Assembly (NCBI GenBank): GCA_958295855.1
Contig: OY282383.1
Span: forward strand, 4,958,329-5,022,328
DNA from: an uncultured Poribacteria bacterium
Lineage (GTDB): Bacteria > Poribacteria > WGA-4E > WGA-3G
DNA length: 64,000 bases
Direction of reading: 5' to 3'
This document shows positions 8,940 through 63,004 of this stretch, piece by piece; position 1 is the first letter of the stretch; the number at the start of each line of letters is the position of its first letter. The notes under the pieces were generated by a model. That model did not search any database. It was not told the origin of the DNA and was given only the letters and a program-made list of their open reading frames with translations. Both the position numbers and the translations under genes were made by a program.

Positions 8940-11900
8940 CTATTCAGATTTAAGGGTTGATAACAGGGGGCTGCGGAGTGCCAAGGCAGCCGCAACAGCA
9001 TTTGCAATTATACCAAAGACGAAGATGGAAAGCAAGGTAATTGTGAGGGACAACCATGGCAAAGCGCGGAGATGCTCTAAGATAATTGTGAGGGACAACC
9101 ATGGAAAAGCACGGAGATACCATTGCGAAGTCAGGATTGCTGCAAGCCCCGCGACAATGCCGATAAGCATCCCCACAGTGAGAAGGAAGCAGTTTTCAAG
9201 AAATAGCATCCGCGAGAGGAACTGGCGGCGAAAACCGAAGGCACGCAGGGCAGCCAATTCCCTGCGGCGTTCGATGATATTTCTAAACAGCACGAGTGCT
9301 AACCCGAGGGTGCCGAGCAACACCCCTAAACCGCCGAGGCTCTGAAAAGTGGAGATATAGGTGTTTTCAACTGCCCGGTAGCTTGCCAATCGCACCGATG
9401 CTAACGTAACATCAAATCCGTAATCGCCTAATGTTTTTTCTAACGTTTGTTCTGTCTCTGCCATCAATTCAGGTGGCGTTTTGATGAGGAAAAATTGATA
9501 CCCGCTTTGACTCGGGAAGTATTTCATGAAGTTCTCCTCTGAGATGATGAGCTGGCTTTGGAACAGGCTGTTCTCGAGCGTGCGAAGGTGAAGGCTGAGC
9601 GGTTTTCCAAATTCATCTTGGATGATAAATTCATCGTCAGGATTGTGGTGTAAAATCCAGCGAAGCGACTTTTCATCGCCGATGGCGATAACCTGGCCGC
9701 CGGTATCGGATGCGTTCGGTATTGGCTTCCGCCATGTTCCCGCCCTCCCGCTTCCCCCCAATGCGAATACGGCATCCGAAACGCCTAAAATTTGCGGTTT
9801 CTGGGGCCGATAGAGGTTGAGACAACTCACATCTTCACCGGGAAGTACGCGAAACGGAATCACCTCCGATGCGCTCAGGAGTTGGGAAGCTTTCTCGGAA
9901 AAGCCGAGTTCAAACCGTCCCTCTGGCGTATTCAGGCTGTGGTGTAAAGGGAGCGCGGACTCAGCGACAAAAGCGTACGCTGTCTCTGGAAGGGCATCGT
10001 GCCGATTTGCGCCCACTGCGACGATAATACAGCACGCCAAGCTGACCGTTGTAACACAAGCTTTGCTCCGTTTTGCCTGCCACGCGGCGTTTTTGAGGGA
10101 AAACCGCATCCTGCTCAGCCGCTTTGGTACACGCTGTGAACTTAGCCATTTATTAAAGGCGGACCAACCTACACCGAGAATAAAAAGCGTCGACAGGAGA
10201 AATTGGACAATCGGATGCATAAACCATGTAACAAGCGTATCCAGAATCCATGCACCAACAGGAAAATAGGCTGTTATGACACCTACAACGAATCCGATGA
10301 CGAAAGAAACGAATTGATGGAAATCACCGCTGATCAACAAGAAGAGGCTAAAACCTACCACAAGCAAAATAGTACTAAGTCCGCTCCATCCCTCCGTAAA
10401 GAGCAGACCACCTCCCAGGATACCGAGCATGAATCCACTAACAAAGATACGAATTTTGGCTACCCAACCCCCTGATACATTTGCATTTTGAGGGAGTGGT
10501 ATTATCCCCCGCTTGGCGGGGGTGAATACCCTAAGCGGTGTGGCATTCGCGGCATCAAAATCAGTTTCACCGGCGAGGAGCGCGGCAGTGGAGACACGCC
10601 CTACCCTGACAACAGCCCTAAGGATAGAAATCATAACGACTGCGAATACTACCAGGATACCGATGAGTAAGCTCCACAGACTCGCATGAAATTCTATAAA
10701 GGGTGTGCCGATAGCAGGCAACCACCACGTCTGTAGCCCGAATATCATCAGCTGTGCATACCCGATTGCCAGCAGGCACCCTAAGAGACTACCGATACCA
10801 GCGATGATGCCCCCTTCGTAAAGGAAACGGCGACGGATTTTGGCAAGTGGGTAGCCAACAGCTTGTAAAATGCCGATCTCGCGCGAACGTTGTTCGACAC
10901 CGATACAAAAAAACATCTCAACGAGCCAGGCGACCGCGAGGATTAAAAAAAAGCTTAGACTGCTAAACAACATGCCAAAATCTGTTGCTCCTGCTGATGC
11001 TTCAAGCCCATCCGAGCGAAGCGGTAAAAACTGGAACCCGACCTGTTCTGGCTGAATCTTTTTGAGGAATTCAGTTTCAAAAAGCGCGCGTGTCGCAGGG
11101 ATGTCTGTGCCCGGTGCAGTTTCCAATCGAATAGCGGTGAGTTCTCCGAATCGGTTTTTCCAGAGTCGTTTGCCGGTTTCCAGCGGAACATAAGCTTTCG
11201 GCGTTGCCCCGTATTCATCCCAATATGCCTCATCCTGACTACGAATGAGGGTGTAATCAATCGGAAAAGGAGACTCCCATTCGGACATATCGGCGGTGTC
11301 GTGAATGCCCGGAAATTCAGGGATGATGTCCCTGTCTGCGGCAATACCCTCAATTGGAACAATGCCTTTCATAAGGAATTGTGCCTTTTCAATCGTGTAC
11401 GTTTCACCCGCGTCGACGCGATAGTAGTTAATCTCAACACTATCGCCCACTTTGGCATCAAGCTCTGCCGCTGCCCACGTATTAAGGATAATTTCATCTG
11501 TTCCCCCCGATACCAGCGGTGCTTCAAGTTTGTCAATTGGCAATGCCATGATTGTTGCGTATGGAACAGTTTTGTCGTTAGTCCTTATCGTATTCGCGAG
11601 GTAGGTGAGTGTAGGGAGCACAGGGATGTGGTTTTCAGCCGCAATTGTTAGGGCCGTATCCGACAGGACTGGCTTGAGAAGGTACTGCTGGCTTTGCAAG
11701 TCGAAGTGGTTCTCATGTTCCTGAATGTTTAAGCCGAGTGCCGCTAGCGTCAACTGAAGGTTGTCCGGTGAAAGCGGAGCAACGTCTGCCGTGAATAGGG
11801 CGTTCACTTTGCCAGCTTGGCCAAGTGCTTTTTGCAAAACCGGGAGTGCGATGAACACATTCAAAGGGAGGCTTTGATGTGCGCGCAGACTGAATCTGCC

Positions 11901-12542
11901 TGCATTCTCGTTCCCGATAATGTCACGCACAATTAGCCGGAGGCTTTGAATCACCTCAGATGTTTCTCGTCGCCCGAGAAGAAACTCAGGATGGATGTCA
12001 ACTGCTTGCGGAAAATTAACCAGAATCGCATCGCCGACCTGAACGTTCAATTCGCTTTGGAGTGCCTCGTTAATGACAATGGCAGCGAAGGGCTGGTTTG
12101 ACGTTTTGTTCAGAGTGGTTTCCCCCCCTCCCGGTGGAGGGGTTTGCTCATGTTGTATTCCCCGCTTTGCGGGGGAACCAGCCCTTTGCCAAAATTGGAA
12201 GAAGGCATCATCTACACCGTAAATGTTAACCTTTGAGGCGCGGGTTTCAGTTTTCGGGACAACGACTGTGCCGTTCAGCAGAATCGCTGGCACCATGCCC
12301 TGCGGGAGTTTACTATGAAAAGCGTTGCTTTTCATAATCAACTCGGGTTGAAAAAAGTGGTCGGCGATGAGGGCATGCTGAATTGTGCCGAGGCGTTCCA
12401 ACGTGAGGGCACGCAGGCTCCCGCGGACAGAATCGCCAACAATCAAGGCACCGGCAAGCACTCCCGTTGCCACCGCAGTACAAAGCGCAACGGTGAGATG
12501 TATCTGCCAAAAGTATTTATGGGATGCCCAAAATGTGCGCAT
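8940..12542 (-). CDS. ABC transporter permease, MacB/FtsX-like with duplicated FtsX domains
   Basis: 1200 aa, two blocks of 4 TM helices with large periplasmic loops. Adjacent to an ABC ATPase. Contains in-frame family-B repeat-derived segments (…SPAKRGIQHEQTPPPGGGETT…, …FTPAKRGIIP…). Confidence 0.7.
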   Translation of the reverse strand: MRTFWASHKYFWQIHLTVALCTAVATGVLAGALIVGDSVRGSLRALTLERLGTIQHALIADHFFQPELIMKSNAFHSKLPQGMVPAILLNGTVVVPKTETRASKVNIYGVDDAFFQFWQRAGSPAKRGIQHEQTPPPGGGETTLNKTSNQPFAAIVINEALQSELNVQVGDAILVNFPQAVDIHPEFLLGRRETSEVIQSLRLIVRDIIGNENAGRFSLRAHQSLPLNVFIALPVLQKALGQAGKVNALFTADVAPLSPDNLQLTLAALGLNIQEHENHFDLQSQQYLLKPVLSDTALTIAAENHIPVLPTLTYLANTIRTNDKTVPYATIMALPIDKLEAPLVSGGTDEIILNTWAAAELDAKVGDSVEINYYRVDAGETYTIEKAQFLMKGIVPIEGIAADRDIIPEFPGIHDTADMSEWESPFPIDYTLIRSQDEAYWDEYGATPKAYVPLETGKRLWKNRFGELTAIRLETAPGTDIPATRALFETEFLKKIQPEQVGFQFLPLRSDGLEASAGATDFGMLFSSLSFFLILAVAWLVEMFFCIGVEQRSREIGILQAVGYPLAKIRRRFLYEGGIIAGIGSLLGCLLAIGYAQLMIFGLQTWWLPAIGTPFIEFHASLWSLLIGILVVFAVVMISILRAVVRVGRVSTAALLAGETDFDAANATPLRVFTPAKRGIIPLPQNANVSGGWVAKIRIFVSGFMLGILGGGLLFTEGWSGLSTILLVVGFSLFLLISGDFHQFVSFVIGFVVGVITAYFPVGAWILDTLVTWFMHPIVQFLLSTLFILGVGWSAFNKWLSSQRVPKRLSRMRFSLKNAAWQAKRSKACVTTVSLACCIIVAVGANRHDALPETAYAFVAESALPLHHSLNTPEGRFELGFSEKASQLLSASEVIPFRVLPGEDVSCLNLYRPQKPQILGVSDAVFALGGSGRAGTWRKPIPNASDTGGQVIAIGDEKSLRWILHHNPDDEFIIQDEFGKPLSLHLRTLENSLFQSQLIISEENFMKYFPSQSGYQFFLIKTPPELMAETEQTLEKTLGDYGFDVTLASVRLASYRAVENTYISTFQSLGGLGVLLGTLGLALVLFRNIIERRRELAALRAFGFRRQFLSRMLFLENCFLLTVGMLIGIVAGLAAILTSQWYLRAFPWLSLTIILEHLRALPWLSLTITLLSIFVFGIIANAVAAALALRSPLLSTLKSE

Positions 12543-14317: not shown

Positions 14318-14352
14318 TCCCGAAGTTCACCACTATTGAAAATAGTGGCAAA
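14318..14352. repeat. family C palindrome CCACTATT-GAAAA-TAGTGG
   Basis: ttcaccactattgaaaatagtggcaaacctc. Also at 15862-15898, 37980-38015 and 38830-38868 (some as reverse complement). Confidence 0.85.
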
Positions 14353-14370
14353 CCTCTACGCTATGAGGAG

Positions 14371-15786: not shown

Positions 15787-15861
15787 AGCTTAATCTCCTT
15801 GCGCGCTTGGGGGTGGTATAAGCCCCCGCAAAGCGGGGGTAAATTCCCCATCGCGCTTGTG

Positions 15862-15898
15862 GGAAGAGGTTTGCCACTATTTTCAATAGTGGTGAACT
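15862..15898. repeat. family C palindrome copy
   Basis: gtttgccactattttcaatagtggtgaacttc. Confidence 0.85.
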
Positions 15899-25559: not shown

Positions 25560-26470
25560 AAATCGCCGTTACATCTGAATGCGCGGATGATTTTCTCGTC
25601 TGAATCACGGATTATCACGGAGTACACGGATAGACGCGGATTTTAAGAGGGCCTCTGCTCTTCCCCACGTTTGTCCGTGTCATCCGTGCCACTCCGGGGT
25701 TCAGACAATGAACCATTACATTTCCCCATTAATTTTTTGTTTTCACCAGACACCTGTCGCCCCGCTGGGGCTAAACAAGCAGGTAGGCCCGTGGTACTAT
25801 ACACATGTCGCCCCGCTGGGGCTAAAGAGGTTGCGCGCGGGTTATTTTCTTGTCTGAATCGCGGATTATCACAGATTACGCAGATGACGCGGATTTTAAG
25901 AGGGCTCTGCTCTTCCCCACGTTTGTCCGTGTCATCCGTGCCACTCCGGGGTTCAGAAATGAACCATTACATTGCCCCATTAATTTTTTGTTTTCACCAG
26001 ACACCTGTCGCCCCGCTGGGGCTAAAGAGGTTGCGATCGTGGGGTATTTTCTCGCCCATAAGCGACGTGCAGTCAGACAATAAACACCTCATCGCTGCTA
26101 GGCTTGTAGCGTGACGTGACTTTACAAAAACACCCTCTTAAAATCCGCGTTAATCTGCGTAATCCGTGTAATCCGCGATTCAGACAATGAACACCTCCAT
26201 CCCCCCCATTAATTTTTTGTTTTCATGAGACACCTGTCGCCCCGCTGGGGCTAAACAAGCAGGTAGGCCCGTGGTACTATACACCTGTCGCCCCGCTGGG
26301 GCTAAAGAGGTTGCGATCGCGGGTTATTTTCTCGCCCATAAGCGACGTGCAGTCAGACAATAAACACCTCATTGCTGCTAGGCTTGTAGCGTGACGTGAC
26401 TTCACAAAAACACCCTCTTAAAATCCGCGTTTATCCGCGTAATCTGTGTAATCCGCGATTCAGATTAAAT
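25560..26470. repeat. array of composite family-D repeat units (about 230-290 bp each, about 3.5 copies) containing paired 24-nt direct repeats ACATGTCGCCCCGCTGGGGCTAAA
   Basis: gtcgccccgctggggctaaa at about 25755, 25800, 26010, 26235 and 26285. Inter-repeat segment caagcaggtaggcccgtggtactatacac conserved. aaaatccgcg/gattcagacaatgaacc modules. No ORF. Confidence 0.85.
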
Positions 26471-26668: not shown

Positions 26669-27376
26669 ATGCGAAATCAAAACACGCCTCGACTCCATTA
26701 CGCACCAACAGAAGAGATGGATACCTATCCCGAATCTGATGGGAAACCTATCGCAGAAACGGATCTGCACCGGGATGAACTTCTCAAAACCATTGAGCTA
26801 CTCAGAGAACATTTTAAGGCGCTACCAGATGCCTACGTATCGGGTAACCTGATGATGTATTATACGAAGGGGGAGGCAAGCCACTCAGTATCGCCGGATG
26901 TGTTCGTCAGCTTTGGGGTAGGGCGACATCCCCGGCGCATCTATCGGATGTGGCAAGAGGGAAAGCCTCCGGACTTCGTGCTTGAGTTCTCGAGCAAAGG
27001 GACGTTTCGTAACGATTTGAACGCCAAGAAAACGCTTTATGCGTCGGCACTGGGGGTGCGTGAATACTTCTTATATGATGTGGAACATCTCTATTTACCT
27101 GCACCGCTGCTCGGATTTACGCTGCGGGATGGTGTCTATGTGCCGATTGCTGCGGGTTCAGATGGGGGAATTCTGTCATCAACATTAGGTTTGGCGTTGT
27201 ACTCACTGCCTGCCGGGCTGGGTTTTTATGATGTGCGTGCATCGGAATGGCTGAAGACACCTGCTGAAAAGGAAGCCATCGCCCGGCAACGTGCTGAAGC
27301 TGCCGCACAGCGCGCCGAATCGGAGAACGCACGACTCCGTCAGGAACTTGCACGGTTGAAACGCTTAGAGAATTAG
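26669..27376 (+). CDS. Uma2-family (DUF820) putative restriction-endonuclease-like protein
   Basis: YPESDGKP…ETDLHRDEL…YVSGNLMMYY…PDVFVSFGV…PDFVLEFSS. Coiled-coil Q/A/R-rich tail. Confidence 0.7.
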   Translation: MRNQNTPRLHYAPTEEMDTYPESDGKPIAETDLHRDELLKTIELLREHFKALPDAYVSGNLMMYYTKGEASHSVSPDVFVSFGVGRHPRRIYRMWQEGKPPDFVLEFSSKGTFRNDLNAKKTLYASALGVREYFLYDVEHLYLPAPLLGFTLRDGVYVPIAAGSDGGILSSTLGLALYSLPAGLGFYDVRASEWLKTPAEKEAIARQRAEAAAQRAESENARLRQELARLKRLEN

Positions 27377-27385
27377 GCGTAAGCA

Positions 27386-28195
27386 ATGTCCATCAATACC
27401 ATAGAACAAGACTTTATTAATAAAGTTTCGGCAAAGGTTAGGCTTTCAGCCGATGGCAAAGAACGTTTCCGCGTATTAACTCCCTTCCAGTTTGAAGACG
27501 GAGATCAGTTGGTCATCGTCCTGAAAAAGGTGGGCGATCGGTGGATACTTTCCGACGAAGCACATACTTATATGCACCTCACCTACGAAATTGATGAGAA
27601 ACTTCTTCATAGCGGTACACGCAAGAAGATTATCGCGAAGGCACTCTCCATGTTTGATGTTGATGACCGCGATGGAGAATTAATACTTGATGTGTCCGAT
27701 GGAAATTACGGTGACGCACTGTATGATTTTACCCAAGCACTTCTCAAGATAACTGACGTGTCATACCTGTCAAGAGAACGCGTGCAATCTACATTTATGG
27801 AGGATTTTCGAGCCCTATTGTGTGAAGTTGTCCCGGAGGAGCGGATGCGTTTCGACTGGAGCGACTCAGAGCGAGATGCGGAAAGAAACTACATAGTAGA
27901 TTGTCGAATTAACGGAATGCCGGATCCGCTTTTCGTGTATGCACTCGCTAATAATGATAGGATTCGTGATGCCACGATTGCGCTGCACCAGTTCAAGGAG
28001 TGGGATATCCCGTTCCGTTCTCTGGGCATCTTCAAGAATCGGGGGGCTACCAGTCGCAAGGTACAGGCACGCTTCAGCGATGTGTGCCAGAAGCAATTCC
28101 CCAGCCTCAGCCTAAACGATGCCAGCATCAGAGCATATCTCGTTGATAACATCGGCAGCATTGAGGAGGCGGAAACGAGTTGGCGGATTCAATAA
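27386..28195 (+). CDS. hypothetical protein (possibly DUF1828/DUF1829-like), 10 nt downstream of Uma2 gene
   Basis: Strong coding ORF with no motif I can name. Tight spacing suggests an operon with the Uma2 gene. Confidence 0.4.
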   Translation: MSINTIEQDFINKVSAKVRLSADGKERFRVLTPFQFEDGDQLVIVLKKVGDRWILSDEAHTYMHLTYEIDEKLLHSGTRKKIIAKALSMFDVDDRDGELILDVSDGNYGDALYDFTQALLKITDVSYLSRERVQSTFMEDFRALLCEVVPEERMRFDWSDSERDAERNYIVDCRINGMPDPLFVYALANNDRIRDATIALHQFKEWDIPFRSLGIFKNRGATSRKVQARFSDVCQKQFPSLSLNDASIRAYLVDNIGSIEEAETSWRIQ

Positions 28196-28326
28196 TTTGC
28201 GGGTGATGTTTGATTATCGGTTTTCGGGGCTTGGCAGCGGGTGTCTTGTTTCCAAAGCGGAAGTTCCTGACTATCTGATTTGACAGGACAGGTGCGGCGG
28301 GTTAAACCGGAGGTTACAACGCAACA

Positions 28327-29865
28327 ATGAGCGTGATTCGTATTTTCATCAGCAGTGTACAAAGAGAATTCGCACGGGAACGTGAGGTACTACGCGACTA
28401 TCTGCACGGAGATCCGTTGATGCGGCGGTTTTTTGATGTCTTTCTGTTCGAGGATGTCCCAGCGTCGGATCGCCGGCCCGATGCCCTCTATCTGGACGAG
28501 GTCGAGCAATCCGATCTCTACGTGGGGTTGTTCGGCAACGACTACGGAACCGAGGATGAGGACGGAATATCACCGACAGATCGGGAGTTTGAACAAGCAA
28601 CCGCTTCTGGCGTACATCGTCTGATCTTCGTGAAGGGTACGAACGACAGCGTCCGGCATCCGAAGATGACAACCCTGATCAGTAAGGCACAGACCGGACT
28701 GATTCGGAAACGTTTCAACACGCCGGAAGAACTGGTGGCGGGGCTCTATGCGGCGTTAGTCGAGTACCTGGATAGCAAAGATCTCGTTCGTTCTGAGCCC
28801 TTTGACGTGGCACCGTGTACGAAGGCGGCGTTAACCGATCTTGACTCCGGACAAATGGGATGGTTTATCCGCACGGCACGCAGCACTAGGGCGTTCCCGC
28901 TGACTGAAGGGGCATCAGCCGAGGAACTACTCGTACATCTCAACCTCCGAAACGACGGCCGACCGACGAACGCGGCGGTGCTACTGTTCGGGAAGGCACC
29001 ACAGCGCTTTCTGATCTCTTCCGAGGTTAAGTGTGCCCACTTCCACGGAACAGAGGTAGCCAAGCCGATACCGTCCTATCACGTCTACAAAGGCACGGCG
29101 TTTCAACTCGTAGATCAGGCAGTAGACTTCGTACTCAGCAAAATCGCGCTGGCGGTGGGGACGCGGGCGAAAAGCATTCAGGTACCGGTCACCTATGAGA
29201 TTCCAAAAGAAGTGGTGACTGAAGCGATTGTCAATGCCGTAGCCCATCGGGACTACACCAGCAACGCCAGCATACAGGTGATGCTCTTCGCTGACCGGCT
29301 TGAAGTCTGGAATCCCGGCCGACTGCCACCGCCGCTGACGCTAGAGCAATTGCGAGTCGCGCACCCGTCTGTGCCCAGCAACCCTTTGCTTGCCGAATCC
29401 TTATACCTTGCCGCGTACATTGAGCGAATGGGAACAGGAACGTTAGACATGATCCGCCGATGCATCGACGCTGGTTTGCCAGAACCGGAATTCACCGCTA
29501 GCAGTGGATTCATGACAACCCTTCGGCGTGCCACCCCGGCGGCGCAAATGACGGTGCAGCCAGAGTCACAGCCAGAGTCACAGCCAGAGTCACAGCCAGA
29601 GTCGCAGCCAGAGTCGCAGCCAGAGCCACGCCCTGGAGCTCTCAAATCAAGAGTACTCAGCCTGCTGGCAAACGAGCCGATGCAAAAAGCCGAATTGTCC
29701 AGGAACTTGGGACAAAAGGCAGTTTCCGGGCAACTCAACAAAGTTGTCCGGATGCTCCTCGCAGATGAGATGATCGAATACACGCGCCTGAACAAACCCA
29801 ATAGTCGACTACAGAAGTACCGCTTGACGAACAAGGGAAGGGCCTCCCTGATGCATCTGAGATGA
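28327..29865 (+). CDS. DUF4062 + AlbA_2/Schlafen-like + HATPase_c_4 + C-terminal wHTH protein
   Basis: N-terminus IFISSVQREF…LYVGLFGNDYG…HRLIFVKG (DUF4062-like Rossmann). Middle and C-terminal regions match the 'RecG-like putative DNA-binding/ATPase' architecture. (QPES)6 linker. Terminal wHTH. Confidence 0.55.
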   Translation: MSVIRIFISSVQREFAREREVLRDYLHGDPLMRRFFDVFLFEDVPASDRRPDALYLDEVEQSDLYVGLFGNDYGTEDEDGISPTDREFEQATASGVHRLIFVKGTNDSVRHPKMTTLISKAQTGLIRKRFNTPEELVAGLYAALVEYLDSKDLVRSEPFDVAPCTKAALTDLDSGQMGWFIRTARSTRAFPLTEGASAEELLVHLNLRNDGRPTNAAVLLFGKAPQRFLISSEVKCAHFHGTEVAKPIPSYHVYKGTAFQLVDQAVDFVLSKIALAVGTRAKSIQVPVTYEIPKEVVTEAIVNAVAHRDYTSNASIQVMLFADRLEVWNPGRLPPPLTLEQLRVAHPSVPSNPLLAESLYLAAYIERMGTGTLDMIRRCIDAGLPEPEFTASSGFMTTLRRATPAAQMTVQPESQPESQPESQPESQPESQPEPRPGALKSRVLSLLANEPMQKAELSRNLGQKAVSGQLNKVVRMLLADEMIEYTRLNKPNSRLQKYRLTNKGRASLMHLR

Positions 29866-29911
29866 CTTGGCAACAGCAACGTTGAGGGACCGGAAAAAAG
29901 GATTGTAATTC

Positions 29912-31486
29912 ATGATTGAAAGACGGTTAAGAGAACTCTGGGAAAATTTGCAAAGCAAAAAACCGCATCTACCCCATTTTCTCTCGGAGATTTACTTAGA
30001 CGGTATTCGTGGACTTCATAACTTGCGGGTGTTGTTTGACTATCCTGTGAGTGTTATTGCAGGCGGAAATGCTACCGGAAAGTCAACGGTGCTTTTTGCA
30101 GCTGCCTGCGCCTATAAGGTGCCAGGAGCAGGGGTTAAGGACTTCGTGCCCTCCACACTGTTTCCAGATTTTCGCCCTAAATTCGGTGAGCGCCAGGATA
30201 TTCAGCAAAACATCACTATGGAATTCAATTATCAGACTCGAGACGGTATGCGTTCCATGCGATGGCGACGATCCAAGGGGTGGAACCGTAGTTTTTTCGG
30301 CCGCAAAAACGCGAGCCAGCCGGAGCGGCAGATCTATCTTAGAACACTCAGCAACCTAAGTAACCCTTCTGAGGTGCGCGGTGTTCTCAGCATGTCGCGC
30401 CTAAAATCTGAACTGCAAGAAATACCCATGACACCATCACAGATTGAGTTCGTACATCAAATGCTCCCCTTCAGGTACTCGGAGGTCGTCGATCTGTCTA
30501 GCGGTAACAAAAATCTTCTCTTTGCTGCCCAGGAAGGCGGGGCCACTTACTCCGAACTGCACATGGCTGCTGGTGAGCGCGCCCTATTGCGGTTGTCACA
30601 AGAGATCACGCAACTTGATGGCGCGCTCGTTCTGATTGATGAAGTGGAAGCAGGTTTGCACCCTTGGGTACAGCAACTTCTCATGTTACATTTACAGCAA
30701 CTGGCACTGCGCAACGACCTCCAAATCATCGTAACCTCCCACAGCCCGGTCGTCCTTGACTCAGTCTCTGCCCGCGGGCGTATTTTTCTTGACCGGGACG
30801 AAGCATCAGGCAAGGTTGTTGTCCGCCCACCCTATCGCGATGTAATTCAGAATGCCCTCTATGGACGCTCCAGTGAAGTGCTTAAACTGCTCTGTGAAGA
30901 CGAGATCGCTGAAGGTATTTTAAAAGGTGTGTTGGATTTGCTGTTATCCAGAGAAAGAATTAAGTGGGAATCTGTCCATATCGGGCGCGACACGGGAGCG
31001 AGTGAATTTCCTATGCACGCTCGTGCTTTAGAAAAATTTGGTCAGCTTCAAAACACCATCTTCATTCTCGACGGTGACCAGCGTGATGGTGAAATCGCAC
31101 ACAAAATACAGGCAACTGTAAGACATAGTGTCAGCATCCCAGTATTGTTCCTGCCCGGTAGCGGGGCACCGGAAAGTTGGGCCTGGGAAAAACTGCAACA
31201 AATTTCTGACGCTGATGCAGAGCAATTGGGCACCAATCTTGGCGTTCTGTCCAACTTAATGGATCAATTGGATGCTACTTATGCCTCAGTGTCCGACTCA
31301 CCAGAAACAGCGAAAATTAAATTTCGTACCCTATCCGAACACTTAAGTAGAGAGGCACCGGAGGTCTGCCGAATCCTCGCACGGTTAGAGGCTGAACGAA
31401 AAGAGAGTGACCTCCGGCCTTTCGTGGAAAAATTGCTGCAAATTTTGTTGCAGTGGCGGGGTAATCCGAAGGGAACAGTGGTATGA
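29912..31486 (+). CDS. OLD-family-like protein: ABC/AAA_21-type ATPase with C-terminal Toprim-like nuclease motifs
   Basis: Walker A GGNATGKST, Walker B LVLIDEVEAGLHP, IIVTSHSP. C-terminal LLCEDEIAEG and FILDGDQRDGE resemble the Toprim E and DxD motifs. 46 nt after the preceding gene. Confidence 0.55.
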   Translation: MIERRLRELWENLQSKKPHLPHFLSEIYLDGIRGLHNLRVLFDYPVSVIAGGNATGKSTVLFAAACAYKVPGAGVKDFVPSTLFPDFRPKFGERQDIQQNITMEFNYQTRDGMRSMRWRRSKGWNRSFFGRKNASQPERQIYLRTLSNLSNPSEVRGVLSMSRLKSELQEIPMTPSQIEFVHQMLPFRYSEVVDLSSGNKNLLFAAQEGGATYSELHMAAGERALLRLSQEITQLDGALVLIDEVEAGLHPWVQQLLMLHLQQLALRNDLQIIVTSHSPVVLDSVSARGRIFLDRDEASGKVVVRPPYRDVIQNALYGRSSEVLKLLCEDEIAEGILKGVLDLLLSRERIKWESVHIGRDTGASEFPMHARALEKFGQLQNTIFILDGDQRDGEIAHKIQATVRHSVSIPVLFLPGSGAPESWAWEKLQQISDADAEQLGTNLGVLSNLMDQLDATYASVSDSPETAKIKFRTLSEHLSREAPEVCRILARLEAERKESDLRPFVEKLLQILLQWRGNPKGTVV

Positions 31487-37159: not shown

Positions 37160-37331
37160 TTGTACTCCTCCTCGTCTTGCTTTTTTTTAAACTGAATTCA
37201 TGGGGGATACGCTCTGTCACTCATCAGAAACCCGCTTTTGAGCAGCTTCTTCCCCCGCTTTGCGGGGAAAAAGCAATCAGCAATCGTTATTAACCCCTGC
37301 AAAGCAGGGGATAACTACCATCCGAGCTCGG

Positions 37332-38102
37332 TTAGTGGGTTAGCGCGTAAACAGCGATATTCACAGCCATCTTTGCGGCGAGTTCCCGAACTTGGGGTGT
37401 ATCGTCTGGATGCACATCGGCATCTTCAAGTCCATCCCCGATGTCAGCACTGTAAACGTAGTAAACTACCATCCGTCCATCATGAAAGAGCCCAAACCCT
37501 TGCGCGGGTTCCGAATCATGTTCATGAATTTTGGGGAGCCCTGGCAAGTCATAGAAGCAGTGATAAATCGGATGTGCGTTCGGTATCGGTTGTAGTTTCT
37601 GCTCAGGGAAGACCCGGCGCATTTCACGGCGAAAGCTCTCATCCAACCCGTAGTCATCGTTCGCGAAGAGAAAGCCTCCGCTAGTGAGGTAGTGCCGCAA
37701 CGCTTCAACTTCGCTTTCAGTGAGGCGAATATTTCCGTGTCCGACGAGGTAGAGCATCGGATATTGATAAAGGGTGTGCTCTGTCAGTTTCAGAATCACC
37801 CGGTCTTCGGCCGTTTCAATATCTGTCCGTGTGCGGAGGATGTGGAGCCAATTGCTGATAGCAGTCGCATCGCCGTACCAATCTCCGCCCCCGCCATAGT
37901 GGATTTGGGCGATAGTAAACTGCTCGCCCGCCTCCTGTGTGCTGATTGCTACGCAAAATAGGAGGCAACAGACTAAAAACAGATGTTCACCACTATTGAA
38001 AATAGTGGCAAACCTCTTGAATATTGTTTGATGGACGGATAACGGGGCACGCACTCTGCCACACCAGGAGCCCCAATGTCTTAATTGTCTCATAGAATAC
38101 AC
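37332..38102 (-). CDS. DUF4159-like protein
   Basis: GGGGDWYGDATAISNWL…FANDDYGLDESFRRE. The N-terminus contains a family-C palindrome read in frame (…FATIFNSGEH…). Confidence 0.45.
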   Translation of the reverse strand: MYSMRQLRHWGSWCGRVRAPLSVHQTIFKRFATIFNSGEHLFLVCCLLFCVAISTQEAGEQFTIAQIHYGGGGDWYGDATAISNWLHILRTRTDIETAEDRVILKLTEHTLYQYPMLYLVGHGNIRLTESEVEALRHYLTSGGFLFANDDYGLDESFRREMRRVFPEQKLQPIPNAHPIYHCFYDLPGLPKIHEHDSEPAQGFGLFHDGRMVVYYVYSADIGDGLEDADVHPDDTPQVRELAAKMAVNIAVYALTH

Positions 38103-38108
38103 CTCACC

Positions 38109-40568
38109 CTAGGTGAGCCCCATGCGTTTGCGTAAAAACCATTCCGTGCCTAATAACCCAACAACTGTCATGAGAATGAGTGGATGTGCCCAGAGTTCGC
38201 GCTCGGCCATGGCGAAAACCGGGTTTTGGACTACCTCAATGTTGTCAGGCAGTGATTCCGCATCAGCTATAGCAAGATAGGCCCCTCCCGTTTGCGCCGC
38301 GAGCTGTTTAAGTAGATTTTCATTGAGTTGGGGTGCCTCCAACTCCGCGAGTTGAGGCTGGACGTAAATGTCGATTTTTTCTTCTTCCAATGTGGTGTTA
38401 CCTCCTACGCCTATAGCACGAATGCGGTAAGTTCCCTTCTGTAATGCTTCAAATTGGGCATTATAGGTACCAGCGTTATCTGCTGTTCCATCTATTGCTT
38501 CTGCGCGAGTTCTGAGCGCAAAGGGGGTGCCCTCGGGTGGTGTAACCTGAATTTGAATTGTTGCCCCCGCTTGGGGCTGATAGGTTTCAGAATACACCCG
38601 CGCCGTAACTGCTACTGTGTCCCCTATTGCATACGTGGATGCATCCGTGGTAAGGTATAGCCGGTTTCCATCGGTGTTCGTTGCCATCCATCGGAGGACT
38701 TGTGCCCAGAAGCGTGCATAGAATGTGTAACGGTTGGTGTCTTTAAAATTCCGCGCGCCGAAATCCCAATTCCATAAGCCTTCTGCGGCAATGAGAAGGC
38801 TTTTGCCTAAGCCGGCTCTCTGAAAAATCAGAAGAGGTTTGCCACTATTTTCAATAGTGGTGAACTTTGGTTCGCTTTTTCCGGTCTCCATAAGTGTTCT
38901 TGCCCCGCCCCTGAGTCGGAAGCCACTAAAGAAACGTGAGAGGGCCGGCAAGTTTCGCCAAAGGGCAACGTTGCTTTGCTGTGTCTGGTTAAGGATATTA
39001 CCCCTGCTTTGCAGGGGCGAATACAATCCGAGTTGTAGCATGGGATGAAATGCGCCCGATTGTGTCAGTTGCACAGTGAATTCTGTGTCCCACATGCGAC
39101 ATCCGTTTATCGGAATGTGAATGGGAAGAAGTTTCGCCAGTTCCGTGTTTCTGAGCCCGTTCGTGCCAAGCATGTTCCCGGAAGGCAGAAAGATAATCGG
39201 CTTTCCGTGTACCTCTACAAAATCGACAATCGCGCTTTGTTGACTTGGGGTGAGATGTTCAGCCGTGACATCGCCTAGAATCAGCACATCGTATGTGAGA
39301 AGTTCAGCGAGCGTTTCGGGGAAACGGGGTGTTTCTGACGCAGGGCTACCTTGTGGATAATACCCATTTAAACGGCTTAGCACAACGTCAGTGCCGGTGC
39401 GTTTTGAGGTTTCATGAAGAGATAAGAGTGCCCAAGTCGGCTCAATGTCGGGATCCCGTTCCAGGGCCCGTTTTAGGAACGTATACTCCCATCTCGGTTT
39501 ACCCTCTAAGTAGAAAACGTTCAGTTTTGCCTTCACGCTCTTTAACGAGAACGTTTTTTCATTATTTTCGTTTGTCAGTTCGCTGTCCAGGGTGGGCAGT
39601 GCAACAGTATATTGAAAATTACCCTCGGTCTGTGGTGTTAACTTGAGTTCAATAACCTGTTTTGTTTGCATAAGGATATTACCCCTGCTTTGCAGGGGCG
39701 AATACAAGTGGCTAGGGGCAACATTCTGACGCTGTTCGTCCGTAAACGTTAATGTTGCTGCGTCCACGAGACGATTGCTATTCACCTCCCTCAAGGACAG
39801 CCGTGTTGTTTCACCTGTGTAGCCCGTTTGGACAACCGTCACGCGGATGACGCTCTCATGCCCTGTGTAGGCAACCGGTGTGACATCAACCCGCTGAATC
39901 TGGATGTCCTTTGGCGGTTCCACATTGCCCACCCCTATTGCATAAACAGGTGTATCTAATGCGACAAGTGCCTCAAGCGGAAACTGTCCAGAATTATGTG
40001 CGCCATCCGTGATAAGCACAACACCCGCGCGCTGTTGTCCTTTCCAAGCGTCTGCCACTTCCCGGAGTGCCGTTCCAATATTGGTTAGCGTGCCTTCAGG
40101 TTCAATATTAAATTGAAAGCTTGCCTCTGGCGAAGGGGCATTCACGTCTGGCGCCGGTGCTACACTTTGACGCAGCTTGGTGTCGAAAGGGTAGAGATGA
40201 ACCTGGAACCGGTTACGCAAAGCCTGCAGGAATTGACTGGATTCACCAAACAAGAGTTGATTCACTTGACCGATCCGTGGCACAGCATTTTCACTAGACT
40301 CTCCATCTGCTAACTGCATACTTTTCGAGGTATCCACCAAGATGGAAAGATGTGTCGGTGGCGTGATGTCCTTTTTTTCGATGACTACGGGTGCTAACAG
40401 ACAGCCAAGTAAGATCGACGCGGCGAAAATCCGCAGGGCGATGAGTAAAAATCTATGCCTCGCTTGCAAAGGACGGTTGAGACGTAGGTAAACGAATGCT
40501 GTCGTGCCAATTACAATGGCGATACCGAGTGCAACTGCCCAGCCCGGCCAAAAATAGGTGAATCGCAT
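38109..40568 (-). CDS. BatA-like membrane protein (aerotolerance-regulator N-terminal TM domain + vWA + GATase1-like C-terminal region)
   Basis: N-terminal 2 TM helices + HLSILVDTSKSM (MIDAS DxSxS). Carries three in-frame MITE-derived insertions (two LYSPLQSRGNIL, one FTTIENSGKPLL). Confidence 0.6.
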   Translation of the reverse strand: MRFTYFWPGWAVALGIAIVIGTTAFVYLRLNRPLQARHRFLLIALRIFAASILLGCLLAPVVIEKKDITPPTHLSILVDTSKSMQLADGESSENAVPRIGQVNQLLFGESSQFLQALRNRFQVHLYPFDTKLRQSVAPAPDVNAPSPEASFQFNIEPEGTLTNIGTALREVADAWKGQQRAGVVLITDGAHNSGQFPLEALVALDTPVYAIGVGNVEPPKDIQIQRVDVTPVAYTGHESVIRVTVVQTGYTGETTRLSLREVNSNRLVDAATLTFTDEQRQNVAPSHLYSPLQSRGNILMQTKQVIELKLTPQTEGNFQYTVALPTLDSELTNENNEKTFSLKSVKAKLNVFYLEGKPRWEYTFLKRALERDPDIEPTWALLSLHETSKRTGTDVVLSRLNGYYPQGSPASETPRFPETLAELLTYDVLILGDVTAEHLTPSQQSAIVDFVEVHGKPIIFLPSGNMLGTNGLRNTELAKLLPIHIPINGCRMWDTEFTVQLTQSGAFHPMLQLGLYSPLQSRGNILNQTQQSNVALWRNLPALSRFFSGFRLRGGARTLMETGKSEPKFTTIENSGKPLLIFQRAGLGKSLLIAAEGLWNWDFGARNFKDTNRYTFYARFWAQVLRWMATNTDGNRLYLTTDASTYAIGDTVAVTARVYSETYQPQAGATIQIQVTPPEGTPFALRTRAEAIDGTADNAGTYNAQFEALQKGTYRIRAIGVGGNTTLEEEKIDIYVQPQLAELEAPQLNENLLKQLAAQTGGAYLAIADAESLPDNIEVVQNPVFAMAERELWAHPLILMTVVGLLGTEWFLRKRMGLT
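38830..38868. repeat. family C palindrome inserted in frame inside CDS
   Basis: aggtttgccactattttcaatagtggtgaacttt, translated as FTTIENSGKPLL. Confidence 0.85.
38987..39022. repeat. family B hairpin (aaggatattaCCCCTGCTTTGCAGGGGcgaatacaa) inserted in frame inside CDS
   Basis: Exact 36-nt string also at 39662-39697 in the same gene. Confidence 0.9.
39662..39697. repeat. family B hairpin, second identical in-frame copy
   Basis: Identical 36 nt to 38987-39022. Confidence 0.9.
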
Positions 40569-43542: not shown

Positions 43543-46233
43543 CTAAAAGAGTCTGTCTTGTCTCATATCTTCCCTAACTCTTTCACGACCGGCAAGGAAA
43601 CCATCTAATAACTTCTTCTCTCTGCTCTCAATCGGCAGCGTTTCAGATACGGCTTGCGCGACACGATAGAACGCCTCGCTGCGTCCAAAACCACTGTCGA
43701 AAAGGACACGAATCATCTCATCTCGTTGGCTCTTTTCCCAGAGGAACAGCACATGGTGAAGCACGTCAATCAGCTCATCAGCACCAGAAAGACTGTCAAG
43801 CATTCGCGTTTGTGGCCCAAGCACGCGAATAAACTGCTTTTCTTTCACAATGAACCCTTTTCCGCCCCACTTTTGTGCAACATCCACCCCACAGGACTGC
43901 GCCAATTTCCGCGCCTCGTCAAAAGGAACGCGCGCTTCGCCGTATTCCCATCGCCAGAGGACATAGAAGCGGGTAATGTCGGAAATCTCACCTGCAAATC
44001 CATTGTGCAAAATCTGCCGCACGGCATAATCGGTGGCGATTTCTCGGACATCGTCAAGCAGGCGATGCGCGCGGATAATCTCTCCTTCAAAAGTCATGAC
44101 CTGCTCGTATTTGCCGAAGACCTCAATTGCCGAGCCGATGGCGGCGATAAAAAAGTCTGCCCCGCTCAGGCCTTCCTCCCAGAGTCTGTGGAGTTTCGCG
44201 TTGAGGTGCGTTGTCAGTTCCATCTTGACTTCGTTGTAGAAACCTGTCGGTTCGCGTGCCATTTTCCGGGCGACGATGTAGATGGAGGAAGCGAGCGCAG
44301 CCGATTCATTAGCCCGTAGTCGGGTAGCCTTTTCTGTAGACAAGGGCCAAGCACCAGTCATGATGAGCCCAGAATCCAGCAAAGCGTTAATCAGCGTCTC
44401 CCAACCTGCAGTGGATTTGTGGGCATAGACGATAACGGTGACACCGTTGGGTTTCAAAACGCGGTGAATTTCTTGGAAAGATTGCTTGAGCGCCTCCTCA
44501 AAGAACCGCTTTCCCTCCTCAAAACCGCCTGGGCCGTGTGAATAGGCGACAACCTCGTTTCTCTTCGGAGTCAACGGTGTGGCGAAAAGTTCAGGATGCA
44601 CATCACCCAACGTTCGCTTCAGCCATACGTAGAAGAAATCGGAGAGATACGAATAGGGCACGTTATCGTAGTATGGCGGATCGGTGAAAACGGCATCGAA
44701 GAAGTTGTCAGGATGCGGTAGGTTGGTGGCTGAGGATTGGGTAACTGTAGCATTGTGTGGGAAAAGCGTTGAACTTAAATGTGAAGTAATTTTTAAAGTA
44801 GTATCAGTTTGCCTAGCCCAATTCCCTGTCAAAATACCAGATGGATTTTGCTCTGAATAATCAAAAACCATAGGGAGTGCCTGCCGGCCAAAAACATTGT
44901 AAACATTTTCCCCCAAAGGGTGCCACCAACACAAAGACGCATTATAACTTGAATGACAGCTTAGGATTAAAGCCAAATAACTCACCACCGCCTTCGCGTA
45001 TTCTGCATCAACCCCTTCTGCCACCATCTTTTGATACGCCGCCCTCACCTTCTCCGCAAACGTAATCAATGATAGTTTCTGCCGCGCGTTGAAGAGGTCT
45101 CCCCATTTCAGTATGCCATAGCCTTGCACCCGAAAACCTAATGTGCCTTTCGGTGGCAGAGGCTCATCTGGCACCGCGTCCATGCCCCATGCCAAAGTCA
45201 ACTTCTCCCGCTTCTCCGCAAGGTACGCCGTGGCGCACGCAAAGACAGCCAGGTCAGTATCCGTCGCCACACGATAACGTTTACCCGTCGTACCCGGCTT
45301 GTGCAGTACAACGGCAACCAGCCGCTGTCCCGATTTCCCCTCCTGAAACAGGCGCCGCGTCAACTTGGCTTCCACCGCCCCACCGCACACAGGACACACC
45401 GCCACAGCGCGTGAGATAGTCCCTTTCGTTGGATCAAAGTTGTCAGGCATCTGTTCATACCCATCGCCGACAATCTTGAAGTCGACACGCCCACTTTCAA
45501 CATCAGGATACAGTGCCACCTTTTTTTTCGCCTTCTTCGCCAGCCAGAATTGTTTCAGCAAGGGGATATCTATACCACACGACGGGTTCTGACATGGAAT
45601 TGTCCTTGCCCAAATATACCCGACCGGAATTGACCCGTCTGCCTCTTCAGAGTAGAATGTGCCAAGCTCCTTCTTCGCTTCGGCAAGCACCCACTCTCCC
45701 CATTTCTTGACATCTTCTAACAAAGGATTTTTCGCCGGTTCACCAAAACGGATGCCTTCACCCGGTTCCCCCGCGGGGCTGCCGTACTTCTGTGAGTATT
45801 CCAGCGTGCATTTCTGAATTAAGACAGCAACAGGGTTAAGGTCATTGGAATAGGTGTCGCATCCCAGTCGAAGTGCCTCCAGCGGAATTGCACCGCCGCC
45901 CCCAAAGGGATCGAGAACCTTCGGTGGCGCACCGTCGTTGGAAACCTCAAGGATTTCTTCCTGTGCTCTTTTAATTAGATGGGAATTTAGGGAATTTTCC
46001 CACTTCGAGAGGTCCCTGATAAAATTCCGTTTCTGCTGCCACTCGTCAATATCTTTTGGGGGTGGAATCAAGGCAGCGTAGGCGGTTGCCCGTGAAGATG
46101 CAAGCGGCCGCCTCGCCCACCAGATGTGGAGGGCAGAGATATGTCCGTGGCGTATGTTTTTCTCGCGAGCGGCCTCGGCGGAGACTTCTTTGACAGGGAA
46201 GGTCTCTTCAATGAAACGTTTGTCTTCGTTCAT
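43543..46233 (-). CDS. DUF1156-type N6-adenine/N4-cytosine DNA methyltransferase
   Basis: N-terminus ETFPVKEVS…HIWWARRP (DUF1156-like), motif I DPFGGGGAIPLEA, motif IV FTDPPYYDNVPY, Zn ribbon CPVCGG. Size 896 aa. Confidence 0.7.
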   Translation of the reverse strand: MNEDKRFIEETFPVKEVSAEAAREKNIRHGHISALHIWWARRPLASSRATAYAALIPPPKDIDEWQQKRNFIRDLSKWENSLNSHLIKRAQEEILEVSNDGAPPKVLDPFGGGGAIPLEALRLGCDTYSNDLNPVAVLIQKCTLEYSQKYGSPAGEPGEGIRFGEPAKNPLLEDVKKWGEWVLAEAKKELGTFYSEEADGSIPVGYIWARTIPCQNPSCGIDIPLLKQFWLAKKAKKKVALYPDVESGRVDFKIVGDGYEQMPDNFDPTKGTISRAVAVCPVCGGAVEAKLTRRLFQEGKSGQRLVAVVLHKPGTTGKRYRVATDTDLAVFACATAYLAEKREKLTLAWGMDAVPDEPLPPKGTLGFRVQGYGILKWGDLFNARQKLSLITFAEKVRAAYQKMVAEGVDAEYAKAVVSYLALILSCHSSYNASLCWWHPLGENVYNVFGRQALPMVFDYSEQNPSGILTGNWARQTDTTLKITSHLSSTLFPHNATVTQSSATNLPHPDNFFDAVFTDPPYYDNVPYSYLSDFFYVWLKRTLGDVHPELFATPLTPKRNEVVAYSHGPGGFEEGKRFFEEALKQSFQEIHRVLKPNGVTVIVYAHKSTAGWETLINALLDSGLIMTGAWPLSTEKATRLRANESAALASSIYIVARKMAREPTGFYNEVKMELTTHLNAKLHRLWEEGLSGADFFIAAIGSAIEVFGKYEQVMTFEGEIIRAHRLLDDVREIATDYAVRQILHNGFAGEISDITRFYVLWRWEYGEARVPFDEARKLAQSCGVDVAQKWGGKGFIVKEKQFIRVLGPQTRMLDSLSGADELIDVLHHVLFLWEKSQRDEMIRVLFDSGFGRSEAFYRVAQAVSETLPIESREKKLLDGFLAGRERVREDMRQDRLF

Positions 46234-46364
46234 AATGGATTCCTCCTATGTTAATGTGGGGTGTAGTAGAGCACAATTGCAAATGGGTCAACACAATTTG
46301 GTAGGTTCGCATAGATGCTGCTCGCCGCACGCGTTGAGTGGCATCAATTTCCGCGATAATTTTT

Positions 46365-47579
46365 CTATCTGTTATACAATACCAACAAGGGCACCTGGTG
46401 TTTGATCGGGACGTTCTCGCGTTCATATTCCCAATCACTAATCGCTGAACTTGATGTTTTCTTGAGACCTAATTCCTCCGCTACCTGAACCTGTGTCAAG
46501 CCTGCTTTCATTCTCATTTCTCTCAATTCTTGACCTGTAAATTCAAAGTCAATAGGCTCAGGCAGATCGATAACGGGTGCGGATGCTTCTTCTAGTGCGA
46601 TTTCTGCGTTCAGTTCTGCTTCACCTGATGCCACATTGGATTTTAGATATTTTTTATAGGCAAATTCAAGCACGGGTAGAAGTTCTCTCAGATTTTCAGG
46701 AATAGCATAATAGGCTCTACCGTGATTGAGACGATCCGAGGCAGTCTTGCATCCATGTTGCCTTCCCAATTTTTCTGCCTCTTCTTCCACTATCTCGGCA
46801 AAGAATCGAGGAGGGCTAAAAGTAATGTCGAGGCCAAAGACTACTTCCTCTCTATACCCTTTTAACCCAAAACTACAAAGATCTTCCGAGAATTTCCGAT
46901 CTAGTTCCCAACCTTCTTCTTCAATCAAATGCAGCATCTCTGCAACCCCGCTGTAAAATGCGCTGCATTTTTTTTCAGGATATTTTGATTCATAGTGTTT
47001 CCTAAGTTCTTGGGGTACGGAATCTCTAACCCGCGCTATTGTCCTGTTGGCCTCCGTTACCGCCCGTGTCTTTTCTTCTAGTGCGATTTCTGCGTTCAGT
47101 TCTGCTTCACCTGATGCCACATTGGATTTCAAGAGGTATTTCTCCAGATCGGAGATAGCAGTCTCTCGATTTTCAATATCGGTTTCACAGAAAAACCTGT
47201 CGCCCAAACTGGAGGCTTCCCACCGAAAGAGGTAAAATCGCCAGCGTTTGCCGTTTGTAATTATTGCAAGGGGGACATTTCCACTATAAGCGTAGGAGCA
47301 GGTTTGTTCCTCGTATCTTGCGATTGGCTCATTCCACCGTTTACACTCAATCAACACAACAGGATTCTGTTCTTGTTTGATGCGTAAGGCGTAATCAGCA
47401 CTTCCACTCTCTACCTTATATTCCGGTAGAACTTCCATAGACGCTAAATTAGCATCGTCCCAACCTAAAGCCCGGAGAATGGGCAGGATGACATATTGCT
47501 GGGTGGTTGCTTCTTTGGCATATGTCAGGTGTTCTTTGTGTTCAAGAATATGCGAAATTGTGTTTCTCAGATCCGGCAT
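46365..47579 (-). CDS. PD-(D/E)xK nuclease (HsdR-N/Mrr-like) with C-terminal XRE-type HTH
   Basis: …SADYALRI…VVLIECKRW (D…ExK core). C-terminal LTQVQVAEELGLKKTSSSAISDWE HTH. Start set at MPDLRN, because upstream ORF sequence is repeat. Contains an exact ~58-nt internal direct repeat. Confidence 0.55.
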   Translation of the reverse strand: MPDLRNTISHILEHKEHLTYAKEATTQQYVILPILRALGWDDANLASMEVLPEYKVESGSADYALRIKQEQNPVVLIECKRWNEPIARYEEQTCSYAYSGNVPLAIITNGKRWRFYLFRWEASSLGDRFFCETDIENRETAISDLEKYLLKSNVASGEAELNAEIALEEKTRAVTEANRTIARVRDSVPQELRKHYESKYPEKKCSAFYSGVAEMLHLIEEEGWELDRKFSEDLCSFGLKGYREEVVFGLDITFSPPRFFAEIVEEEAEKLGRQHGCKTASDRLNHGRAYYAIPENLRELLPVLEFAYKKYLKSNVASGEAELNAEIALEEASAPVIDLPEPIDFEFTGQELREMRMKAGLTQVQVAEELGLKKTSSSAISDWEYERENVPIKHQVPLLVLYNR

Positions 47580-47589
47580 GCGACATCTC

Positions 47590-47795
47590 CTTATTCCTAG
47601 TGATATACTCCCACTGCTAAAGCAAGGGGAAACCTCCGTCTCTTGCCCACCGTGCCACCGTGTGTCCCGCTGGGGCTGAGCATCTAGGGCAGTCTGCGTT
47701 TCTATACACATACCGCCCTGACAGGGCTAAAACGCCCCCAAAATCCGCGTTATTCTGCGTAATCCGTGTAAATCCGCGATTCAGACGAAAAATGA
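47590..47795. repeat. family-F hairpin element (ttcctagtgatatactccc…ggggaaacctcc) plus degenerate family-D modules
   Basis: About 45 nt homologous to 17436-17482 next to the tnpB remnant. gtgtcccgctggggctga / gccctgacagggctaaaacg / aaaatccgcgttattctgcgtaatccgtgtaaatccgcgattcagac. Confidence 0.7.
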
Positions 47796-63001: not shown

Positions 63002-63004
63002 TTT

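Follow-up and report, generated by a model that had tools for sequence, protein, structure and literature searches.

Probable insertion of REP-like palindromic mobile repeats in the coding sequence of a Poribacteria gene for a vWA/GATase1-like membrane protein

How does the gene of a membrane protein come to hold three copies of dispersed palindromic repeats and remain a single open reading frame (ORF)? The question is raised by a locus in a stretch of 64,000 nucleotides from an uncultured Poribacteria bacterium (GCA_958295855.1, contig OY282383.1, positions 4,958,329-5,022,328, forward strand), hereafter the window, to which all coordinates refer and whose first letter is position 1. The window is overall very rich in dispersed and tandem repeats, and two hairpin-forming families, here called B and C, are found within the host gene (38109..40568, minus strand), which codes for a membrane protein combining vWA and GATase1-like domains. 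The reading favored here, with a probability of about 0.8, is that REP-like (repetitive extragenic palindrome-like) mobile repeats, two of 36 nucleotides and one of 33, were inserted in the coding sequence of this gene. The three segments are insertions with defined boundaries and hairpin potential, they are polymorphic among strains, and the gene that carries them has continued under purifying selection.

The host gene encodes 819 amino acids in one uninterrupted frame, which bears out the initial annotation in its claim that the ORF stays open across three repeats. Two N-terminal transmembrane helices are followed in the protein by a vWA domain, which matches PDB 4rck (E=1.6e-5), then by segments resembling beta-sandwiches and by a GATase1-like domain, whose best parallels are 3rht in sequence (E=3.5e-5) and 2gk3 in fold (E=1.5e-5); an MG2-like domain and, last, a C-terminal transmembrane helix complete it. 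The label of a BatA-like vWA protein that it had received is roughly right, but the Pfam VWA_2 score of 25.8 falls slightly under the threshold of 27, there is an extra GATase1-like domain, and NCBIfam gave no match for this protein, as also for the DUF4159 and orf1200 proteins. All its relatives come from Candidatus Poribacteria genomes and metagenomes. Directly upstream of the start codon lies a sigma-70 promoter sequence matching TTGACA-18-TATAAT at 12/12 positions (40623-40594). The ratio of nonsynonymous to synonymous substitution rates (dN/dS) is 0.17-0.36 inside the insertion-bearing clade (dS 0.03-0.05) and 0.19-0.24 against insertion-free relatives. Given these ratios and the perfect promoter, the gene is not a pseudogene and is still under purifying selection.

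The insertions were delimited by aligning the window protein with 17 orthologues, and their boundaries by comparing the DNA with two orthologous loci, L001 (a Tara scaffold whose gene order is conserved with the window) and L002. The peptide LYSPLQSRGNIL is present twice and FTTIENSGKPLL once in the host-gene translation. The 36-nucleotide B unit AAGGATATTACCCCTGCTTTGCAGGGGCGAATACAA has exactly two copies in the window, 38991-39026 and 39672-39707, and no match in 100 shuffles, confirming that two identical units are present, as had been proposed. Site 1 (39672..39707, minus strand) is a clean 36-nucleotide insertion encoding LYSPLQSRGNIL as residues 287-298. Site 2 (38989..39027, minus strand) again encodes LYSPLQSRGNIL, as residues 515-526, and comprises the 36-nucleotide unit with 3 extra nucleotides, so that the gap relative to L001 and L002 is 39 nucleotides, or the unit and one codon. 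Site 3 (38834..38866, minus strand) is a 33-nucleotide insertion of a C unit encoding KFTTIENSGKP (residues 567-577), with a core strand of the GATase1-like beta-sheet region following directly; it entered in codon phase 1, converting ATT to AAG...CTT and the next residue from I to L. The earlier count of 12 added codons for each B copy thus applies to site 1 but not to the 39-nucleotide gap of site 2, and the C palindrome, correctly recognized as an insertion, adds 11 codons and not 12; the copies themselves were real, although the positions first assigned to them were 4-10 nucleotides off.

All three segments are missing from each of the 17 aligned orthologues, including P0002, P0003 and P0004 at 80-89% identity, and P0123 likewise lacks them. 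P0002, with 783 residues, is exactly 36 residues shorter than the window protein. The orthologue comparison that the initial annotation had suggested thus found the inserted peptides in no orthologue examined, which rules out ancient native sequence. Inteins or introns were rejected, as the segments are far too short and the frame reads through them, and a CRISPR (clustered regularly interspaced short palindromic repeat) array was rejected as there is no spacer structure. Compared with the unoccupied loci of L001 and L002, the insertions at sites 1 and 3 are sharply bounded and have duplicated no target sequence.

The closest strains allow the insertions to be placed in time. The sister strains of the window, L006 (a circular 5.51-Mb hifiasm contig, ena:ERZ19489113:s18.ptg000019c) and L007, are ~98% identical to it in protein, and the same insertions occur in these three independent assemblies, two of which are hifiasm long-read contigs; an assembly artefact is thereby set aside, as is the numbering artefact once raised as a possible undoing of the observation. 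Both sister strains show a C-to-G change in site 1 (I to M). In L007 a 33-nucleotide in-frame deletion between 8-nucleotide direct repeats (GCAAAGCA) has taken away the 3' arm of the hairpin at site 2 along with 15 native nucleotides, and since the gene is intact after the loss of half of this hairpin, the latter is dispensable. On the favored reading the insertions arose after the split from relatives now ~89% identical in protein and before the divergence of the three ~98% identical strains, and the inserted units are now decaying through point mutation and slippage deletion. The tryptic peptides predicted from the inserted segments are FTTIENSGKPLLIFQR, ...HLYSPLQSR, GNILMQTK and GNILNQTQQSNVALWR.

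Both families have the capacity to fold. For B the folding energy is -16.5 kcal/mol on the mRNA strand and -13.6 on the antisense strand, and for C it is -9.8 and -15.6, respectively; for neither does any shuffle fold as well. The B-type family conforms to the pattern GGTA(T/A/G)-N3-4-CCCC(T)GC-NNN-GC(A)GGGG-N-ATACC, with most heads being GGTAT or GGTAA, one copy (37320 region) GGTAG, and none having a CGTC tag. B-type hairpins occur at 16 loci in the window, nine of them intergenic, three at the very 5' ends of ORFs, where the true start probably lies further downstream, and four deep in genes, which is a strong depletion in coding DNA when set against the 85% coding density of the window. 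The C palindrome AAGAGGTTTGCCACTATTTTCAATAGTGGTGAAC occurs at four places in the window (14325, 15864, 37985 and 38832), each time with at most one mismatch, and in none of 100 shuffles. Besides that of site 3 these are an intergenic unit with 1 mismatch (14325..14358, minus strand), an exact intergenic unit (15864..15897, plus strand) adjoining a B-type hairpin at 15823-15839, and an oppositely oriented unit in the 5' end of the ORF for DUF4159 (37985..38018, minus strand), which would give KRFATIFNSGE if translated. A census of 13-nucleotide repeats in genes yielded mostly chance two-copy matches, so that only families of at least three copies are informative in it.

Across 11.4 kb of alignment with L001 the window has four specific insertions of at least 33 nucleotides, three in the host gene and the fourth a 151-nucleotide intergenic insertion (37175..37325) that contains two inverted B-type hairpins (37252-37267 and 37294-37310) in the manner of a REPIN-like doublet. 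At the same intergenic spot, where L001 has nothing, L006 and L007 carry an exact copy of the gene-type B unit (TTGTATTCG...ATATCCTT, 36/36). The recurrence of the exact unit at an intergenic site of the sister strains indicates that B is a discrete 36-nucleotide unit with defined ends, which has moved or been exchanged over the time in which the strains diverged. CTCGG precedes two of the three exact B copies, and no convincing target-site consensus can be drawn from three copies. Searches beyond the locus found little: Rfam covariance models gave no match at gathering thresholds over the whole window, an exact 26-mer and then a degenerate 23-base pattern of B had no match in a genome-contig collection of which the source genome is not part, and a metagenome scan with the 20-mer core of B returned one unrelated AT-rich match only (L003).

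With respect to the protein, sites 1 and 2 fall in the two most indel-rich stretches of the 17-orthologue alignment, site 1 lying between two beta-sandwich-like segments, while site 3 lies in a region otherwise gap-free among the orthologues, directly before the strand LLIFQR. A full-length AlphaFold model built on 18 sequences was unusable (mean predicted local distance difference test score, pLDDT, 42.8); a domain model from 77 sequences, with a predicted template modelling score of 0.65, is satisfactory for the N-terminal half of the domain alone. The domain model places site 2 after the strand 507-512 and site 3 before the strand 579-584, both in non-regular segments, but with pLDDT below 50. 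The inserted peptides would thus probably lie in surface loops or linkers.

Insertions at comparable places of the vWA orthologues of other lineages are different from B and C. In L004 a 96-nucleotide palindrome (11490-11585, -35.7 kcal/mol) occupies site 2, with a net gain of 36 nucleotides and a partial copy in a nearby spacer. L009 has two 51-nucleotide hairpins (1652-1702 and 2851-2901; -20 and -32 kcal/mol) at residues 279 and 679, and L010 has in-frame insertions of 27 (11546-11572) and 54 nucleotides at residues 516 and 679, the 27-nucleotide motif recurring just 3' of the gene. The same variable loops are occupied in all these lineages, by strong palindromes in L004 and L009.

Systems of the REP/RAYT (REP-associated tyrosine transposase) and IS200/IS605 kind act on single-stranded hairpins and leave no target-site duplication. 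By analogy, the B and C units would most likely move as single-stranded hairpins mobilized in trans by a RAYT-type or IS200/IS605-type HUH/tyrosine transposase. Once inserted, they would be translated as extensions of surface loops or linkers by 11-12 residues, with selection having kept only those insertions that were in frame, stop-free and in permissive, indel-tolerant segments. Several observations weigh against this proposal. The two B copies in the vWA gene lack a clean GTAG head, having GGATAT where GGTAT or GGTAG would be expected, and a scan of 39 large ORFs of the window turned up neither a RAYT nor any other transposase. The structure models are poor at the very positions of the insertions. 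Lastly, site 2 has its 3 extra nucleotides and the L004 element replaced 60 native nucleotides, on account of which some of the events may have been recombinational and not clean transpositions.

These last points lead to an unlikely, though not negligible, alternative, namely that the copies spread by ectopic recombination, gene conversion or templated repair, with site 2 perhaps copied from site 1. It would explain why the two B copies match at 36/36 positions and share orientation and frame, with 9/15 flanking nucleotides matching on the 5' side of the plus strand, in addition to the irregularities at site 2 and in L004. However, the matching flank of site 1 is native sequence that the orthologues have too, the units at sites 1 and 3 went in cleanly and end sharply, and the 36-nucleotide unit appears with identical ends at an unrelated intergenic site in the sister strains. 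Insertion of REP-like mobile repeats accordingly remains the favored account of the three segments.

A further question is whether the frame was preserved by a property of the elements or by selection on the gene. The initial annotation had seen selection or bias for frame-preserving insertion, and this part is not supported. In the two locus-wide DNA alignments used for an unbiased tally of indels, one of them the 11.4-kb syntenic window against L001, the indels in coding sequences are of 6, 12, 15, 21, 27, 30, 15, 39, 15, 18 and 45 nucleotides, all multiples of three whether repeat-derived or not; the single exception is a paired 41+7-nucleotide insertion in L008, which sums to 48 nucleotides. 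The intergenic indels of the same alignments are of 10, 20, 151, 27, 17, 65, 10 and 12 nucleotides, with only those of 27 and 12 being multiples of three. Nor are the open-frame counts remarkable: B is free of stop codons in 5/6 frames (P=0.10-0.35) and C in 4/6 (P=0.3-0.76) when compared with shuffles or random window segments. As all coding indels keep the frame, most intergenic ones do not, and the open frames are ordinary, survivorship under purifying selection suffices to explain the pattern. On the simplest reading the length of this B subfamily, being divisible by three, helps that filter by happenstance.

The rival view, that the families are themselves adapted to be compatible with coding sequence through their length and stop-free frames, or insert in frame by preference, is rather doubtful. 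It can draw on the B unit being exactly 36 nucleotides even at the intergenic site and open in most frames, and on about a quarter of the B-type loci of the window lying deep in genes, far above what is usual for REPs. Against it stand the tally and the non-significant frame counts given above, the variable lengths of the intragenic hairpin insertions (27, 30, 33, 36, 39 and 51 nucleotides), and the depletion of B-type hairpins from coding DNA despite that share.

Could the hairpins instead have been kept for a role in the mRNA, such as pausing translation between domains, stabilizing the message or blocking antisense transcription? The stable sense-strand hairpin of B, the location of site 1 between two beta-sandwich-like segments, the terminator-like antisense strand of the C unit and the terminator-like sense strand of the C copy near DUF4159 would fit such a role. 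But the sense hairpin of C is weak, the B units are not terminator-like, all orthologues manage without the hairpins, and L007 has lost one arm of the site-2 hairpin from a gene that stayed intact, making this a very improbable explanation. That the gene is decaying as a pseudogene, or that its continuity comes from an assembly or numbering artefact, as three insertions in one gene could hint through relaxed constraint, can hardly be entertained in the face of the uninterrupted frame, the identical structure in three assemblies including long-read contigs, the low dN/dS after insertion, and the conserved promoter and operon context.

The closest published parallels are the Rickettsia palindromic elements (RPEs), for which in-frame palindromic insertions have been known since 2000 (Ogata et al. 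2000, Science 290:347, via PMC10969869, PMC3733652). The analogy to them that had been drawn at the outset is apt, in that dispersed palindromes sit in a functional gene whose orthologues lack the segments. As the accounts in PMC10969869 and PMC3733652 present them, RPEs too are dispersed palindromic repeats lying in frame within functional genes, absent from orthologues; one gene can be hit repeatedly and the insertions are thought to sit on the protein surface. They differ in their host, an obligate intracellular alphaproteobacterium, and in size, the classic RPE being, in the same accounts, ~150 bp as against 33-36 nucleotides for the Poribacteria units. Because of these differences in size and host, homology of B and C to RPE-1 to RPE-10 is unlikely, and they are treated here as analogues. 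RPE-4 and RPE-6 have been classed as CGTC-tagged REPs (PMC3733652), a tag that none of the Poribacteria units has.

Nearer in size are the 20-40-nucleotide REPs of the GTAG/CGTC super-families, which Di Nocera, De Gregorio & Rocco 2013 (PMC3733652) described within ORFs of several phyla. These hairpins are mostly extragenic and often form inverted dimers, a minority within ORFs encodes short peptides, some ORFs have two inserts, and N-terminal copies are often not truly coding (PMC3733652), all of which resembles the situation in the window. In contrast to them, most B heads are GGTA(T/A/G) and not strict GTAG, with GGATAT in the vWA copies; Poribacteria are not among the genomes of that study, and the targets here are envelope or membrane proteins whereas that study emphasized DNA-repair proteins. 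By the usual definition of a REP, a 20-40-nucleotide imperfect palindrome with a GC-rich stem-loop and many, mainly extragenic, copies, B qualifies. Likewise, the short GC-rich hairpins, the inverted doublet at 37252-37310, the lack of target-site duplications and the polymorphism between strains recall the REPINs and RAYT transposases described by Nunvar et al. 2010 (PMC2817692) and Bertels & Rainey 2011 (PMC3116915), from which the present case differs in that the window ORFs scanned include no RAYT gene and the in-gene copies are singlets, not doublets. ERIC, BOX and QMITE1 elements are also small non-autonomous repeats that make in-frame peptide insertions, but they measure 70-300 bp, have terminal inverted repeats and usually create target-site duplications (PMC10969869), while the units studied here are simple hairpins of 33-36 nucleotides that made no such duplication. 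B and C thus fall outside the definition of MITEs (miniature transposable elements with inverted repeats; 70-300 bp, 15-30-bp terminal inverted repeats, target-site duplication). The L004 palindrome comes nearer to MITE size, and its replacement of native sequence means that no clean target-site duplication can be defined there. B and C are not assigned here to any named family by sequence. The literature searched held no published link between Poribacteria and palindromic, REP-type or MITE-type repeats; intragenic REPs and RPEs being already published, the Poribacteria case is a further example in a new phylum.

The vWA gene is not the only one affected in the window. The FtsX-type permease gene (8940..12542) contains three in-frame hairpin insertions of 27, 30 and 39 nucleotides, two of them B-type, namely a 39-nucleotide hairpin of -22 kcal/mol at 10497..10535 (minus strand, peptide LRVFTPAKRGIIP) and a 30-nucleotide one at 12152..12181 (minus strand, peptide AGSPAKRGIQH); the 27-nucleotide insertion at 12310..12336 (minus strand, peptide IMKSNAFHSK) is the hairpin ATGAAAAGC-AAC-GCTTTTCAT. 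All three are missing in an 88%-identical orthologue and present in a 99%-identical one. The confinement of six verified coding insertions to at most two genes has P ~5e-5 under uniform placement over coding DNA, a value subject to ascertainment, since the 27-nucleotide hairpin was found only because the FtsX-type gene was aligned. Insertion tolerance is clearly concentrated in few proteins. In the same gene a 45-nucleotide in-frame tandem duplication (9079-9123), shared with the 99% relative and with no other, doubles LRAFPWLSLTIILEH in the last transmembrane region, and a G-rich CCGGGAGGGGGGG is inserted in frame at 12121-12135 (PGGGE), varies even between the window and P0124, which is 99% identical, and is seen again at 8118-8129 as an insertion between genes.

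At 37985-38102 the C unit displaced the native start and the positively charged n-region of the DUF4159 gene (MRIGKKLWKP in L001), and the ORF now reads through the unit to an upstream ATG preceded by GGTGAGG; the gene calls of the sister strains are extended likewise. As this copy is terminator-like in the sense strand, its translation is uncertain, and it may dampen read-through out of the vWA gene.

Beyond B and C, the intergenic DNA of the window has further repeats. A 108-nucleotide unit is present at 13349-13777, upstream of an ABC ATPase gene, as two tandem copies 98% identical and a third that has diverged; every copy holds a B-type hairpin and a GGTAGGCAC...CCCTAC palindrome, and tandem units with B hairpins lie at 13560-13777. 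Between two genes at 5363-5923 there is a tandem array of 6.5 copies of an 86-nucleotide unit (97% identity), and single copies of the same ~90-nucleotide family, a third and longer repeat family with its own hairpin CGTCAGAAACCTCCGACG, adjoin other genes at 1709-1806, 8776-8873, 12593-12679, 55276-55316 and 63000-63097. The large intergenic composite clusters at 25650-26470 and 56970-58110, in which interleaved families include ACACCTGTCGCCCCGCTGGGGCTAAA hairpins and GGTAGGC heads, look like REP mosaics of the bacterial interspersed mosaic element type. The sister strains have, relative to the window, a repeat-like insertion of 75-85 nucleotides at 40658/40659, just upstream of the vWA promoter region, and ~800 extra nucleotides at 47665/47666; intergenic repeat content thus turns over between ~98% identical strains.

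Two defence-like islands break the otherwise conserved synteny and vary among strains, one at 26669-31486 (Uma2, DUF1828, DUF4062/HATPase_c_4 and AbiEii-like AAA_21) and the other at 43543-47711 (DUF1156 and HSDR_N/HTH), of which L001 lacks the DUF1156 gene. Within ORF 28327..29865 a 12-nucleotide tandem repeat CAGCCAGAGTCA occurs six times (29557-29629), giving a short peptide repeat, and ORF 46365..47711 (HSDR_N/HTH) has two exact copies of a 57-nucleotide repeat (46587-46643 and 47073-47129; a related 14-mer lies at 13015), an internal protein repeat with no hairpin.

With the insertions described above, selfish DNA residing in frame within genes, recorded in Rickettsia and in a few Proteobacteria and Verrucomicrobia, extends to the sponge-associated and largely uncultivated Poribacteria, and at considerable density, as six verified hairpin insertions fall in two genes of a 64-kb stretch. 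One protein has been hit in the same loops, independently, in four lineages, by different families where the family is recognizable, and this offers a natural map of insertion-tolerant loops. The vWA gene also presents a dated series in the passage of such DNA toward protein sequence, with the empty site, the full unit, the point-mutated unit and the half-deleted unit all represented. For annotation this is a warning, as lineage-specific segments of 10-17 residues and lengthened N-termini often derive from repeats in these genomes. A broader proposition, speculative and at present to be considered unlikely, is that Poribacteria hairpin repeats regularly inhabit coding sequence, with a sizeable genome-wide share lying in frame in genes for envelope or membrane proteins and several unrelated families repeatedly hitting the same permissive loops in different lineages. 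If this were true, such repeats would be a major ongoing source of variation in loop length and sequence in the surface-exposed proteins of sponge symbionts, possibly with adaptation at the level of the elements themselves in the form of unit lengths divisible by three and stop-poor frames.

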